Part shown: positions 1 to 64,000 of the stretch, one piece after another | How the letters are laid out: each line of letters opens with the position of its first letter | How positions within the stretch are numbered: the first letter of the stretch is position 1 | Source of the DNA: a virus | Reading direction: 5' to 3' (one strand) | Virus record (IMG/VR): IMGVR_UViG_3300030339_000025 | DNA: 64,000 nt | Translations under genes and position numbers: made by a program | The notes under the pieces: generated by a model | Seen by the model: the letters and a program-made list of their open reading frames with translations, nothing else | Told to the model about the DNA's origin: nothing | Databases searched by the model: none

Positions 1-8
1 GATATTTT

Positions 9-221
9 TTATTTTGATGATATTTTTGCTAATTTCTTTAATTTAAGTTTTCTAGTTCTTTGTTTATTAAATTTATAATTTTCACATTCAGGATTAATAC
101 AACCTATTTTTGGACCAAAAAAATAATATTTATTAGATTCTGTTGAGCCACAATTAGGACACGTACCTTCAGTACCTTCAGTTATAATTCTACAAAGTGG
201 TGGTGCTGGTTTTTGTTTCAT
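9..221 (-). CDS. small zinc-ribbon protein with C-terminal KLKLKKL tail
   Basis: CxxC...CxxC pairs in translation; C-terminus RKLKLKKLAK matches recurrent EKLKKL-type tail motif. Confidence 0.35.
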   Translation of the reverse strand: MKQKPAPPLCRIITEGTEGTCPNCGSTESNKYYFFGPKIGCINPECENYKFNKQRTRKLKLKKLAKISSK

Positions 222-223
222 AA

Positions 224-715
224 TTATTTTAAATTAATAAATTTTCCACGAATTCCACAATATTTTAATATTTCTACATTATTTTTGCCATATGCTACAA
301 GAACAGATGGTGCTCCAGCATTTGCTGATGCTTTTTCACCTGTTACATAATGAAAAAATAATCTACCTTCAATAAATAATAGAGCATCAGCTTTATTCCA
401 CACATGATCAAAAAACATTCTAGTTTCAGTTCTGGCAAATATTAATGCTATTCCATTACCATGTTCGGCAAGTTTGTTCAACCAATCCGCAGCTTGTAAC
501 CCATATGGTGGATTACACCAAACTCTACCAAACCATTTTTGTTTTAGTCCATTATCTTCAATTGTAAATTTATTTTTTGCTGTAGTCCAAGGTGATATTA
601 TTGGCGCACAAGGATCTAAATCAAAAATATCTAAAGCATCTAAAATATGTGGTGGTGTTAACCATTCATCATTTTGCATATTTGATGATTGATGCGATCC
701 TATTCCTTTTCTCAT
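224..715 (-). CDS. phage-type DNA N6-adenine methyltransferase (Dam-like)
   Basis: NPPY catalytic motif (WCNPPYG), overall similarity to phage Dam MTase family; inference from motif and length. Confidence 0.7.
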   Translation of the reverse strand: MRKGIGSHQSSNMQNDEWLTPPHILDALDIFDLDPCAPIISPWTTAKNKFTIEDNGLKQKWFGRVWCNPPYGLQAADWLNKLAEHGNGIALIFARTETRMFFDHVWNKADALLFIEGRLFFHYVTGEKASANAGAPSVLVAYGKNNVEILKYCGIRGKFINLK

Positions 716-60216: not shown

Positions 60217-60284
60217 TTTAAATAAATTTCTATACCTAATAGAGTTTATATTTTTTATATATAATAAAAAATATATATAAATTA

Positions 60285-62609
60285 ATGTCTATTAATCCAT
60301 CTTTCTGGCGTTCTAGTGGTAAAACTGATGATTCGTTTTTAACAATTGTTAATAAAGCATTTCATACTAATTTACCAACAGCGTTATCTGCTAAAACTTG
60401 GCTTGATTCAATGGGATATTATACAAATTTTAATTATATTATTCCTCCTATTCTTCCTTTTTTAATTTCCGCTGGATCTCAAAAATCTTTTTATGATAAT
60501 AATGGTGCAGTATGGGGTTGGGGCTATAATACTTTTGGACAATTAGGAGATAATACAACAACATCAAGATTAACACCAGTATCAATATTAGGCACAAATA
60601 AGACTTTTTGTAAAATTTTTGCAGGTTCTAATAATGCTGGAGGAATAGATAAAAATGGCCAAGTATGGTGCTGGGGGTATAATGATAGAGGACAATTAGG
60701 AGATAATACAGTAATAGATAAATATTCGCCAGTATCAATATTAGGTGCAAAAAAAACCTTCTGTAATATTTCGACTGGAGGCTCACATACAATTGGAATA
60801 GATAAAAATGGTCAAATATGGGGCTGGGGTTATAATAATAAAGGTGAAATAGGAAATAATTCAAGATTATTCAGATGTACACCAGTATCAATATTAGGTG
60901 CTAAAAAAACATTTTGTAATATTAGTGTCGGTGTATCTTACACAACTGGATTAGATAAAAATGGTCAAGTATGGGGGTGGGGTAATAATTATTCTGGTCA
61001 ATTAGGAGATAATAGTTTAACTAGTAAATGTACACCAGTATCAATATTAGGTACTAAAAAAACATTTTGCAATATTGCAGCTGGTATTTCTCATACAATT
61101 GGAATAGATAAAAATGGATTAGTGTGGGGTTGGGGGTACAATAATCATGGTCAATTAGGAGATAATAGTACAATAAATAGATGTACACCAGTATCAATTT
61201 TAGGCACTAAAAAGACTTTTTGTAAAATCACTGGAGGGGATATTCATACAATGGGAATAGATAAAAATGGATTAGTATGGGGGTGGGGAAGTGATCAATA
61301 TGGTCAATTAGGAAATAAAGTATACCTTATTCAAGGAGGAGATGATAAACGTACACCAGTATCAATATTAGGTAATAAAAAAACATTTTGCAATATTGCA
61401 GCTGGTCAAAATTTTACAATAGGAATAGATAATAATCGTTATATATGGAGTTGGGGGTATAATCAATATGGTCAATTAGGTCTATTGGGTATTACTGCAT
61501 TGAGTTGTTTTTGTACCCCAGTATCAATATTAGGTGTTAAAAAAACATTTTGCAATATATCATCCGGATCTTATCATACAATAGGAATAGATAAAAATGG
61601 ATTAGTTTGGGGTTGGGGTAATAATCAATATGGTCAAATAGGAAATAATTCAGATCAAACTAATATATATACTCCAATATCAATACAAGGCATAAAAAAG
61701 ACGTTTTGTAAAATTATGAGTGGTCAAAATTATACAATAGTAATAGATAAAAATGGATTAGTTTGGGGCTGGGGCAGTAATGGTGCTAGTCAATTAGGTG
61801 ACAACACAGGAATAAATAGATGCACACCCGTGTCAATTTTAGGCGCTAAAAAAACTTTTTGCAATATTTCTGCACATAATGGAAATAATGTAATGGGAAT
61901 AGATAATAAAGGTCAAGTATGGGGCTGGGGTTATAATAATAATGGCAAATTAGGAATTAATTCAATAATAAATAAATGCACACCAGTATCAATATTAGGC
62001 GCTAAAAAAACTTTTTGTATTATTGCTGCAGGTAACAATCACACAATGGGAATAAATAATAGAGGTCAAGTATGGGGATGGGGGTATAATAATAATGGTC
62101 AATTGGGAATTAATTCAATAATAGATAAATGTACACCAGTATCAATATTAGGCGTTAAAAAAACATTTTGTAAAATTACTGCTGGCAATAATTATACATT
62201 GGGAATAGATAAAAATGGATTAGTGTGGTGTTGGGGTAATAATAATTATGGACAATTAGGAGATAATTCATTATCAGTAAGATGTACTCCAGTGTCAATA
62301 TTAGGCGTTAAAAAAACATTTTGTGAAATTTCTGCAGGATATAATAACACTGGCGGAATAGATAAAAATGGTCAAGTATGGGGCTGGGGTTATAATTATT
62401 ATGGTCAATTAGGAGATAATTCAAACGTGTCAAGATTAACACCAGTATCAATATTAGGCACTAAAAAGACTTTTTGTAAAATTTATTTTTCTATAAGTAC
62501 TACAATAGCAATGGATTATAAATATCAAATATGGGGTTGGGGCAATAATAATAGCCTTACATTGACTGCTATTGATACAACAACGCCAATTAGAGTTTAT
62601 AATTTTTAA
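60285..62609 (+). CDS. RCC1-repeat beta-propeller protein (~14 repeats)
   Basis: repeated ~50-aa units NGQVWGWGYNxxGQLGDN...TPVSILG.KKTFC.I.AG..HT.GIDK. Confidence 0.7.
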   Translation: MSINPSFWRSSGKTDDSFLTIVNKAFHTNLPTALSAKTWLDSMGYYTNFNYIIPPILPFLISAGSQKSFYDNNGAVWGWGYNTFGQLGDNTTTSRLTPVSILGTNKTFCKIFAGSNNAGGIDKNGQVWCWGYNDRGQLGDNTVIDKYSPVSILGAKKTFCNISTGGSHTIGIDKNGQIWGWGYNNKGEIGNNSRLFRCTPVSILGAKKTFCNISVGVSYTTGLDKNGQVWGWGNNYSGQLGDNSLTSKCTPVSILGTKKTFCNIAAGISHTIGIDKNGLVWGWGYNNHGQLGDNSTINRCTPVSILGTKKTFCKITGGDIHTMGIDKNGLVWGWGSDQYGQLGNKVYLIQGGDDKRTPVSILGNKKTFCNIAAGQNFTIGIDNNRYIWSWGYNQYGQLGLLGITALSCFCTPVSILGVKKTFCNISSGSYHTIGIDKNGLVWGWGNNQYGQIGNNSDQTNIYTPISIQGIKKTFCKIMSGQNYTIVIDKNGLVWGWGSNGASQLGDNTGINRCTPVSILGAKKTFCNISAHNGNNVMGIDNKGQVWGWGYNNNGKLGINSIINKCTPVSILGAKKTFCIIAAGNNHTMGINNRGQVWGWGYNNNGQLGINSIIDKCTPVSILGVKKTFCKITAGNNYTLGIDKNGLVWCWGNNNYGQLGDNSLSVRCTPVSILGVKKTFCEISAGYNNTGGIDKNGQVWGWGYNYYGQLGDNSNVSRLTPVSILGTKKTFCKIYFSISTTIAMDYKYQIWGWGNNNSLTLTAIDTTTPIRVYNF

Positions 62610-62637
62610 TAAAAAATAATGAATATCTTAATAAATT

Positions 62638-64000
62638 ATGGGAACATATAGACTTTATTCTTTTAATACAGGATCAACAATTCCAGGAACTTTGCAAGTA
62701 GGAAATATTGCAGTTTCAACTGGAGTTACTAATTATTCCACAAATAATGTTGCTTGGTGGATGGGTCCAGATGAAGATCCAGGGTTTATAACTGCTATTA
62801 CTCTAAATAGTAATCCATCTTTTTGGCGATCTAGTGATAAAACAGATGTTGCTTTTTTATATTCAATAAATAATGCCTTTAATCAAAATTTACCAACAGT
62901 AGTTTCTGCAAAAACTTGGCTTGATTCAATGGGATATTATACAACTTTTAATTTATTGTTAACTCCATCAACTACAAATATTAGTAATGAAGTTGGTACA
63001 GGTTACACTGGTGCGACTTTCACACCTAATTTAGGTTTTTATAGAAATTATGAGGCAAATAATACATTAGCATTGGCGGATTATACTGGTAGAATACGGC
63101 CAATTCAAACAGCTATAGAATTTGTAGAAACCAATCCTAGTTATATTATTTTAAGAAACGTTCCACAAATAGATGATTTATATGTACATCCAGAAAGATT
63201 TGGTTTATATAACATTACAACATTAACATACCCAGATGGTAATTTAAGTGGAATAATTTCTGCTACAAATTTGGGATCATATTCTGGTAACACTAATTGT
63301 GTTAAGTTTTTTACAACAGTTCAGTCATCAGGTTCTGTTGGTGATAAATATGGAATATATGATATTTATCCAGTTGGAACATGGAGAAATAATAATAAAA
63401 TAGTTCCATTAGGTACTGGGGGTTGGAATAGTACTTATGTAATAAGTTCAGCTGGTATGTGGAAAAAGAAAGATGGTACATATGCTATGATAGTTAATGG
63501 TTATAATGATAGTGCATTTCCTTCGGTTAAACAACATTTATTTTATTCTACTTCTCTTGTTAGTGGTGGTACTTGGGTTGATCAAAATACAACTAATGAA
63601 AATTTATTTAACTCAAATTATTTACCTTCTAATTGTTATGGCACAAATACAGTAATCGGTTGTATTGATCTAGGTGATGGTACATATGCTGGATCAACAG
63701 CATTTTTTAATGGTTCTGGACAAATAATACAAACTCCATCAATAGTGATGTGGAATGAAGATTTAACAAGAAAAGGTGCATTTAATATAATTACTGATTA
63801 TACTATTGTAAATACGTTTACTCCATATGTATCGTTAGTATTTTATAAGGGTAAATATTATTATTCATTGCATGATGGCACATATAATACAGGTAAACGT
63901 CAAGTATTGGTATCTAATTATTTAGAGGGCACTTATTCGTATCATTCTACGGTATTAGATTTTTCAGATCCACAATTCAATTTTAATGATGGTTTGATGT
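62638..64000 (+). CDS. large structural/receptor-binding-like protein, 3'-truncated by window end; N-terminus paralogous to 60019/60285
   Basis: open frame from ATG 62638 to window end with no stop; N-terminal 100 aa colinear with 60019..60216 + start of 60285 gene. Confidence 0.5.
   Translation, partial: MGTYRLYSFNTGSTIPGTLQVGNIAVSTGVTNYSTNNVAWWMGPDEDPGFITAITLNSNPSFWRSSDKTDVAFLYSINNAFNQNLPTVVSAKTWLDSMGYYTTFNLLLTPSTTNISNEVGTGYTGATFTPNLGFYRNYEANNTLALADYTGRIRPIQTAIEFVETNPSYIILRNVPQIDDLYVHPERFGLYNITTLTYPDGNLSGIISATNLGSYSGNTNCVKFFTTVQSSGSVGDKYGIYDIYPVGTWRNNNKIVPLGTGGWNSTYVISSAGMWKKKDGTYAMIVNGYNDSAFPSVKQHLFYSTSLVSGGTWVDQNTTNENLFNSNYLPSNCYGTNTVIGCIDLGDGTYAGSTAFFNGSGQIIQTPSIVMWNEDLTRKGAFNIITDYTIVNTFTPYVSLVFYKGKYYYSLHDGTYNTGKRQVLVSNYLEGTYSYHSTVLDFSDPQFNFNDGLM

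Follow-up and report, generated by a model that had tools for sequence, protein, structure and literature searches.

The window analysed here is the whole 64,000-nucleotide (nt) stretch taken from the IMG/VR virus record IMGVR_UViG_3300030339_000025. Its G+C content (GC) is 24.9% over the 64 kb, with values between 19 and 34% in 2-kb intervals and the maximum at 14-16 kb. A greedy call of open reading frames (ORFs) of at least 40 amino acids (aa) gave 115 ORFs with a mean length of about 173 aa, which cover 93.6% of the window. There are 1.8 genes per kb, with ATGA overlaps between small genes. The stop codons used (72 TAA, 38 TGA and 5 TAG) fit the standard genetic code. A preliminary description made from the sequence alone had called the stretch chimeric, with phage-type, Bacteroidota-type and eukaryote-type genes, and had considered a jumbo phage of Bacteroidota or a giant virus of protists. 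Proteins were annotated with Pfam and PHROGs, and Rfam was applied to the window only. The results suggest that the window represents accessory, non-structural sequence of a huge tailed phage, probably of several hundred kb, with a host among the Bacteroidota; we give this reading a probability of about 85%. The features that bear on it are the following:

224..715, minus strand: Dam-type DNA adenine methyltransferase (Pfam Dam 2.3e-11; phrog_111 2.8e-43)
3292..3825, plus strand: GIY-YIG/NUMOD3 homing endonuclease, SegE-like (Pfam NUMOD3, SegE_GIY-YIG and GIY-YIG; phrog_314 8e-31)
10847..11598, minus strand: N6/N4 DNA methylase as two ORFs (Pfam N6_N4_Mtase 1.4e-19)
12975..16250, minus strand: TonB-dependent outer-membrane receptor with signal peptide, 1091 aa (Pfam CarboxypepD_reg, Plug and OMP_b-brl_4)
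20182..22164, plus strand: small-gene array 1, N-terminus MK.IK.FE and C-terminus KYN[ILV] (regular-expression count, junction alignment)
29034..29771, plus strand: endonuclease VII-like protein (phrog_1035 1.1e-17)
29764..30318, plus strand: glucosaminidase, an endolysin-like peptidoglycan hydrolase (Pfam Glucosaminidase 3.8e-23; phrog_3513 endolysin 2.2e-36)
30782..33193, minus strand: major-vault-protein (MVP)-like protein, full-length, 803 aa (Pfam MVP_shoulder 4.2e-27, Vault_3 4.6e-09)
34512..37657, plus strand: small-gene array 2, MK.IK.[FY]E family including a member with a methyltransferase domain (regular expression; Pfam Methyltransf)
42620-45490: small-gene array 3, containing the ankyrin gene
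43413..44108, plus strand: ankyrin-repeat protein within array 3 (Pfam Ank_2 3.6e-09)
49850..50188, minus strand: T4 gp30.3-like protein (Pfam Phage_30_3 4.6e-21)
53250..54301, minus strand: RNA ligase and T4 Y16D-like protein (Pfam RNA_ligase 1.6e-07; T4_Y16D as precomputed Pfam match)
57961..58605, minus strand: GIY-YIG/NUMOD3 homing endonuclease (Pfam; phrog_314)
59753..59944, minus strand: tRNA, anticodon UAA according to ARAGORN -i, anticodon loop interrupted by 113 nt
60019..62609, plus strand: RCC1 beta-propeller protein (13 Pfam RCC1 matches; phrog_7220 3.7e-101)
62638..64000, plus strand: 5' part of a second gene with a WWMGPDED N-terminal module (translation)

About 35 of the ORFs matched PHROG families, among them methylases, three types of homing endonuclease, NUDIX proteins and a deoxyribonucleotidase. 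Further Pfam matches in the window were two glycosyltransferases, two NUDIX proteins, NT5C, a cytochrome c and two metallophosphoesterases. The left flank, 11 kb beyond the window on a contig of 75,217 bp, adds a PNK (PNK3P/AAA_33, kinase/phosphatase), another methylase, a LAGLIDADG-like ORF and ORFs of unknown function. The same contig holds both the PNK gene, 11 kb outside the window on the left, and the RNA ligase gene. The right flank consists of about 5.1 kb of the JGI contig Ga0302284_1000223. Phage-type accessory content, densely packed small genes and a tRNA of its own, as in huge phages, are all present in the window.

A Shine-Dalgarno (SD) 4-mer core at positions -20 to -4 was found for only 1 of the 115 ORFs, compared to 5% of random 17-mers, and the leader sequences were rich in A and poor in G. 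Genes of Bacteroidota and of Bacteroidota phages are typically without SD sites. Between positions 25001 and 45000 there were 13 terminator-like hairpins, versus 3.2 ± 1.8 in shuffled sequences, an approximately four-fold excess. The low GC, the lack of SD sites and the intrinsic terminators reported in the preliminary description were therefore all borne out. Its TAnnTTTG promoter element received no such support: the frequency in the 100 nt upstream of starts was 1.48 per kb against 0.99 per kb window-wide (17 versus about 11 expected), a weak, 1.5-fold difference. Sigma-70-type promoters were not enriched either (166 versus 169 ± 12).

Copies of window proteins that match in every residue were recovered on at least 16 contigs from ENA (ERZ27248700, ERZ27249843, ERZ27249138 and ERZ27248704) and JGI (3300028738, 3300028862, 3300029983, 3300029998, 3300030685 and 3300031918), the longest of which measure 75-76.5 kb. 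Among GenBank phages, a megablast search with a 24-kb part of the window gave no match. The MVP-like protein had homologues of 91% identity on IMG/VR contigs of 44 and 74 kb, of 80% on one of 501,337 bp and of 73% on contigs of 168 and 105 kb. In a wider protein collection, identities of 80-83% were obtained on contigs of 531,023, 400,464 and 286,618 bp. The large relatives are IMGVR_UViG_3300044712_000732 (501,337 bp), ERZ27297473 k141_239578 (531,023 bp) and ERZ19032877 scaffold_6 (400,464 bp). On the 501-kb viral contig from IMG/VR, 21 window genes have homologues with 32-86% aa identity, all within 22 kb around its MVP gene, and the 74-kb contig is collinear with the window, with 30 matches.

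A tblastn search of GenBank with the MVP-like protein returned three records, all labelled 'uncultured phage'. The identity was 53% in LR756500.1 (462,018 bp) and 50% in LR756501.1/LR756503.1 (735,411 bp). The whole genome of LR756500.1 has a GC of 24.3%, 701 ORFs and 26 tRNAs. By phmmer it encodes a T4-like terminase large subunit (2.4e-32), portal gp20 (3.5e-33), prohead protease gp21 (1.3e-08), tail sheath gp18 (7.7e-21) and UvsW (1.3e-67), and these five genes mark it as a myovirus with a T4 core. A 550-aa ORF beside the protease gene was read from its sequence as capsid-like; a T4 gp23 query did not detect this ORF. The terminase large subunit gene (193332-197824, minus strand) is divided into three ORFs with a 366-aa endonuclease-like ORF in between. 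One of the terminase pieces is extended at its N-terminus by about 140 aa, and the split suggests an intron, an intein or both.

By analogy with these relatives the phage genome probably measures 400-530 kb. We infer its size, its host and, by analogy with LR756500, a virion of the T4-like myovirus type. According to this model the window would be a region of fast-evolving small genes, homing endonucleases, DNA methylases, enzymes of nucleotide and RNA repair and cell-surface sugar genes. The TonB-dependent receptor, the cold-shock protein, the heptose isomerase and the cytochrome c would be captured bacterial genes. The phage would be very AT-rich, with genes that lack SD sites as in Bacteroidota and their phages and that have intrinsic terminators at their ends. 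For the MVP-like, ankyrin and RCC1 proteins the source would be bacterial or phage branches of their families, and they would be no sign of a eukaryotic host. The jumbo phage of Bacteroidota considered in the preliminary description is supported by the phage genes, the peptidoglycan hydrolase, the relatives of 400-531 kb, the GenBank phages of 462 and 735 kb and a TonB receptor with 88% identity to a bacterial one. The chimeric identity thus resolves into a single coherent one, that of a huge Bacteroidota phage. The remark that either case would be unusual was overstated, since huge Bacteroidetes phages were described in 2020 (PMC7162821).

The same low GC and lack of SD sites would also be expected if the window were a piece of a protist giant virus (Nucleocytoviricota) loaded with bacterial and phage genes. 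The presence of MVP, ankyrin and RCC1 proteins, confirmed by Pfam, would fit such a virus, as would the related contigs of up to 400-531 kb. The insert in the anticodon loop of the tRNA sits where introns of eukaryotic and archaeal tRNAs are typically found. However, no core family of the nucleocytoplasmic large DNA viruses (NCLDV; double jelly-roll capsid, A32 ATPase, family-B polymerase, VLTF3 and D5 primase) was found by Pfam in the approximately 80-kb fragment, and the mimivirus early motif AAAATTGA had 0 occurrences within 100 nt 5' of the 115 ORF starts. The density of 1.8 genes per kb with ATGA overlaps is twice that of giant viruses, a peptidoglycan hydrolase gene is kept beside the MVP gene, and terminators of the bacterial type are enriched. 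The relatives in GenBank are phages, and one of their genomes has a T4-like portal, sheath and terminase. The label 'eukaryote-type' proved misleading, as the RCC1 protein matches phage families (3.7e-101) and MVP-like proteins are documented in bacteria. With bacterial or phage homologues for the MVP, ankyrin and RCC1 proteins, no eukaryotic host is required, and we consider a giant virus extremely unlikely.

The TonB receptor, CspA, GmhA-like protein, GDP-sugar enzymes, cytochrome c and glycosyltransferases would be explained if the window were part of the chromosome of an AT-rich and perhaps symbiotic member of the Bacteroidota, either an island or a region rich in prophages, and some homologous contigs have been deposited within metagenome-assembled genomes (MAGs). 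Core bacterial genes had been named in the preliminary description as the mark of an ordinary chromosomal island. None were found in about 80 kb, made up of the 75-kb contig and the 5-kb right extension: Pfam gave no ribosomal-protein or other core housekeeping family across the window and its flanks, and no rRNA or other Rfam family reached the gathering score in the window. A mean ORF length of 173 aa, dozens of ORFans and the homing endonucleases also speak against an island, as do the relatives of 400-531 kb with an equal content of small genes, several of them in IMG/VR. The labels of the MAGs, Lokiarchaeota versus Paceibacterota, are in conflict, as they would be after mis-binning, and the bacterial homologue of the receptor lies in DNA of 42-50% GC, not 25%. 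An island of this kind is therefore judged very improbable.

Several observations weigh against a huge phage. Neither the window nor its left (11 kb) and right (5 kb) flanks yielded a gene for terminase, capsid, portal or tail, and PHROGs matched no head, tail or packaging family in the window ORFs beyond chance-level domain overlaps. The inventory of terminase and capsid genes proposed in the preliminary description was negative for the window and its flanks; the relative LR756500 has a T4-like terminase, portal, protease and sheath. No virion gene could be placed on any contig with a close relative of a window gene. Only 15 of the 115 window ORFs (13%) have a homologue in LR756500; these are few genes that have possibly moved horizontally, although a low number is expected for an accessory region with fast turnover. 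The exact sequence of the window occurs on contigs of at most 76.5 kb, so that the genome size is taken from relatives. The presence of the receptor gene is proof of contact with a lineage of the Bacteroidota, not that this lineage is the present host.

The IMG/VR collection was scanned for virion genes with the portal and capsid-like ORFs of LR756500 as single proteins and as alignments, and with an AT-codon-restricted DNA pattern for the capsid motif MQVAAQT.GLDLVPV. More than 600 IMG/VR stretches matched peptide patterns of the 550-aa capsid-like ORF, and no MVP-bearing contig was among the matches listed, in some scans the best 80 of more than 600 relatives. No homologues of the LR756500 structural proteins were found in the examined stretches of MVP-bearing contigs or around the 40 IMG/VR copies of the WWMGPDED module. 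Two contigs with portal genes from the same peat or fen samples, UViG_3300028738_000106 and 3300031521_000016, were considered as parts of the same phage and rejected, as their GC of 32% assigns them to another phage. A 156-aa ORF on the minus strand (18408-18878 of the examined stretch), about 8.5 kb left of the window and near a LAGLIDADG-like ORF, contains the motif W.IMG...FTIPVGN...IMNKYKE and reached 21.8 bits with Portal_T4, for which the cut-off is 22.9. Its alignment to genuine portals is short and weak, and it was rejected as evidence.

The lack of a virion gene linked to this lineage and the 13% of ORFs common with LR756500 would also agree with some other extrachromosomal element of very large size that has accessory genes in common with huge phages, for instance a megaplasmid or a phage-plasmid. 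The roughly 80 kb analysed revealed no genes for replication, partition or conjugation, however, and the endolysin, the accessory genes of the T4 type and the homing endonucleases are phage traits. The MK.IK.FE family is moreover common to LR756500, which encodes a T4-like virion. We regard such an element as highly unlikely.

For the huge phage, the TonB receptor gives the best lead to the host. A gene in the MAG of an uncultured Tangfeifania sp. is 88% identical to it in amino acids and 82.6% in nucleotides, and one in a Marinilabiliales MAG is 84% identical in amino acids; the next matches, from Ferruginibacter, Ginsengibacter and Niastella (Chitinophagaceae), are at 57-66%. The gene is intact and has an intermediate GC of 33.9% compared to about 25% for the window. 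The bacterial receptor loci have flanks of 37-50% GC and contain no other window gene, and the receptor was absent from the examined parts of related contigs. The gene was recently acquired from a member of the Bacteroidota and has been partly adjusted to the composition of the phage. Its role could be that of a newly gained auxiliary gene or of a receptor decoy. A Bacteroidota host is the best inference from the receptor, the lack of SD sites and the peptidoglycan hydrolase. The order is plausibly Marinilabiliales, a weaker assignment than that of the phylum. The suggestion of a low-GC or symbiotic host found no support, because the closest bacterial donor locus has a GC of 41-50%.

In the MVP-like protein, Vault_3 (residues 445-502) is followed by MVP_shoulder (506-616) and a predicted helix of about 130 residues (617-748), and Pfam gave a weak Band_7/SPFH signal. 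In a PDB search the alignment to rat MVP was detectable solely over residues 441-722 (E = 1.9e-12). An AlphaFold model built with 27 homologues had a mean pLDDT (AlphaFold confidence score) of 55.6 and was confident for the shoulder and the 130-residue helix; the beta-rich repeats modelled in the N-terminal part are indicative only, given the low confidence there. The top Foldseek matches, obtained with this low-confidence model, were human, rat and rabbit vault MVP (1e-19 to 1e-15), followed by MVP R1-R7 (8e-7) and then SPFH proteins. As modelled, the ORF at 30782-33193 has the architecture of the MVP family, with vault repeats, shoulder and cap helix in order.

At E ≤ 1e-10, 6556 homologous proteins were found in the wider protein collection. 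In the relatives a glucosaminidase gene always adjoins the MVP gene, VWA and SIS genes are close by, and a CHAP hydrolase gene is near the MVP gene of the 531-kb contig. MVP-like genes with 40-41% identity are also present on IMGVR_UViG_3300025536_000012 (137 kb) and IMGVR_UViG_3300035128_000105 (62 kb), which have a GC of 52-57%, so the family is not confined to AT-rich phages. Two close homologues are furthermore deposited under MAGs, one of a 'Candidatus Lokiarchaeota archaeon' (77%, on a contig of 37.7 kb) and the other of a 'Candidatus Paceibacterota bacterium' (53%); these copies are probably mis-binned contigs of huge phages. MVP-like proteins with a Band-7-like shoulder occur in Bacteroidetes, Myxococcales and Cyanobacteria (bioRxiv 10.1101/872010), and the weak Band-7/SPFH signal is like that of their non-cyanobacterial branch. 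The order of vault repeat, shoulder and helix of about 130 residues is likewise that of eukaryotic MVP (PDB 4V60 and 4HL8). Unlike the bacterial and eukaryotic proteins, the protein of the window is encoded on phage-like contigs.

The interrupted tRNA claimed in the preliminary description is real. It was missed by default ARAGORN and by Rfam and became visible only with the intron search (ARAGORN -i, c[59753,59944]). LR756500.1 has an interrupted tRNA at 110725-110909 on the minus strand with a 112-nt insert, assigned by ARAGORN as tRNA(UUA), which would read the UAA stop. The 501-kb contig has one at 17981-18197 of the examined stretch, on the plus strand, with a 136-nt insert (ARAGORN tRNA-Val(CAC)). 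The inserts of the window and of the 501-kb contig have the motif TATGAaTAT-GTAGAGgTTGAAaCT in common. Around the window tRNA no Rfam family was obtained at E ≤ 1, and its insert thus does not correspond to any recognised group I intron; inserts of 112-136 nt are too short for known group I introns. The inserts might be excised by the phage's own PNK and RNA ligase. The interrupted tRNA of LR756500 directly adjoins a candidate amber suppressor, tRNA(CUA), at 110652-110720.

Arrays of very small genes had also been described, and three of them (20182-22164, 34512-37657 and 42620-45490) were found. An N-terminus of the form MK.IK.[FY]E/D, in its longer form MK.IK.[FY]E.F, is encoded by 13 of the 115 window ORFs and by 13 of the 701 ORFs of LR756500, where genes of the MK.IK.[FY]E family are located, for example, at 12212-15077 and 316690-318055. 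Variation in the codons for MK.IK.[FY]E is synonymous, which indicates that selection acts on the peptide. The C-terminus K[YF]N[ILVM] of the small genes overlaps the ATG of the following gene (AAATATAAYATATGAAA). The KYN[ILV] signature was seen in the window only, with 0 of 701 ORFs in LR756500. The capsid-targeting sequence of the internal proteins of T4 is MKTYQEFIAE, and the MK.IK.FE tag looks similar. By this analogy the tag could act like the T4 sequence, and in that case the tagged small proteins would be packaged and injected.

The motif TATATATA occurs at 27 sites, at least 10 of which are intergenic (3279, 11613, 11641, 23606, 29010, 34198, 42608, 52805, 60256 and 60272, start positions), where about 2 would be expected, as intergenic DNA makes up 7% of the window. 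A motif (T)TTTTATATATA(A) is situated 5-25 nt 5' of many start codons. The late promoter of T4 is TATAAATA, of which TATATATA is reminiscent. TATATATA/(T)TTTTATATATA(A) is a candidate promoter that would yield very short leaders.

At the right end of the window, 13 RCC1 repeats are encoded in 60285-62609 (plus strand), and the RCC1 proteins matched three PHROG families with a best E value of 3.7e-101. The N-terminal WWMGPDED module of this gene (60019-60216) is separated from the repeats by an insert of about 70-110 nt that contains TATATATA motifs and a new ATG. The ORF starting at 62638 is completed on Ga0302284_1000223 (29.7 kb, same sample), where it ends in a ConA-like lectin domain (Laminin_G_3 1.7e-13); beyond it this contig has a lipoprotein gene and then more MK.IK.FE genes. 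It overlaps the contig of the window by 119-144 nt at 99%. All ENA and JGI assemblies end within 25 nt of each other (approximately 64000-64078), about 1.4 kb into the 62638 ORF, and such a break of independent assemblies at one spot points to a repeat or a strain-variable segment. The N-terminal module of about 105 aa occurs on 40 IMG/VR contigs, the largest of which has 335 kb. The distal domains of the two adjoining genes differ, an RCC1 propeller versus a ConA-like lectin, and this layout suggests exchangeable binding proteins such as fibres. No PHROG tail family matched either of the two genes.

The other annotated genes of the window are:

4249..7697, minus strand: sugar-nucleotide genes in the order GDP-mannose 4,6-dehydratase, NAD epimerase (GDP-fucose-synthase-like), small ORF and DegT aminotransferase (Pfam GDP_Man_Dehyd 4.7e-130, Epimerase 1.5e-64, DegT 4e-65)
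16925..18199, minus strand: group-1 glycosyltransferase (Pfam Glycos_transf_1 1e-09; phrog_2170 2.7e-33)
24193..24666, minus strand: CYTH-domain protein (Pfam CYTH 1.6e-10; LR756500 homologue with 45% identity, tblastn 1.2e-35)
26771..27343, minus strand: SIS_2/GmhA-like sugar isomerase (Pfam SIS_2 6.5e-26; phrog_14703 2.6e-40)
30345..30710, minus strand: cREC_REC receiver-like domain protein (Pfam 5.3e-22; phrog_1479)
37648..39163, minus strand: VWA-domain protein and zinc-ribbon protein (phrog_7371 1.8e-43; VWA domain annotation)
41792..41992, minus strand: cold-shock (CspA-like) protein (Pfam CSD 1.7e-13)

The TonB receptor (SusC), CspA and GmhA named in the preliminary description were all three confirmed by Pfam. 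The VWA and zinc-ribbon genes are also neighbours in LR756500, at 122687-124157 (tblastn). The two ORFs of the N6/N4 methylase at 10847-11598 overlap by 4 nt; the split is identical on all metagenome contigs, which leaves a frameshifted gene or a two-part enzyme.

Among known systems, the window is closest to the huge phages. The largest genome of Al-Shayeb et al. (2020, Nature 578:425; PMC7162821), 735 kb, was assigned by these authors to the Mahaphage clade and predicted to replicate in Bacteroidetes. With its 735,411 bp, LR756501 agrees with this genome in length and is presumably identical to it. LR756500 and LR756501/LR756503 likewise have a GC of about 24-25%, small dense genes, tRNAs of their own and an MVP-like protein, 50-53% identical to that of the window. 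Also in common are the VWA and zinc-ribbon pair, CYTH, cREC_REC, an HD hydrolase, homing endonucleases, the MK.IK.[FY]E family, a tRNA with an anticodon-loop insert of about 112 nt and Bacteroidetes as the predicted host phylum. The differences from LR756500 are that only 15 of 115 ORFs are homologous and that the KYN[ILV] C-terminus is found in 0 of its 701 ORFs. A link to the Mahaphages would be only through the accessory genes common with LR756501.

With the T4-like myoviruses (Straboviridae) the window and its left flank have gp30.3, Y16D, RNA ligase, PNK, an endonuclease VII-like protein, Dam and SegE-type GIY-YIG endonucleases in common, and the arrays of small early-type genes resemble their hyperplastic regions. 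In contrast to these viruses, the phage genome is probably 2.5-3 times larger, the host would be a member of the Bacteroidota instead of the Proteobacteria or Cyanobacteria, SD sites are lacking, and the window has no T4 core gene. The giant viruses are similar in AT-richness, in ankyrin and RCC1 repeat proteins and in the size of the relatives, while they differ in their core genes and promoter motif and in a gene density of half that of the window. The tailed-virion module of the relatives, the peptidoglycan hydrolase and the bacterial terminators are further differences.

The MVP homologue, the short tRNA inserts, the tagged small genes, the TATATATA motif and the captured receptor were not found described in the literature searched. 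During infection the MVP homologue may form a cage of the vault or SPFH type inside the bacterial cell. That a phage MVP cage, removal of the tRNA inserts by PNK and RNA ligase and a small-gene tag resembling a capsid-targeting sequence all hold together is doubtful. If the cage exists, it would provide the long-enigmatic vault particle with a tractable prokaryotic or viral counterpart.

A huge Bacteroidota phage is an already known kind of genome, of which the window is a further member. It adds a well-sampled lineage, present in at least 10 ENA and JGI metagenomes, with Marinilabiliales as a lead to the host. Of practical weight is that such contigs are binned into MAGs under unrelated labels such as Lokiarchaeota and Paceibacterota. 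The mixture of phage, Bacteroidota and eukaryote-type genes is the normal appearance of the accessory region of a megaphage, and probably does not indicate a new kind of virus.

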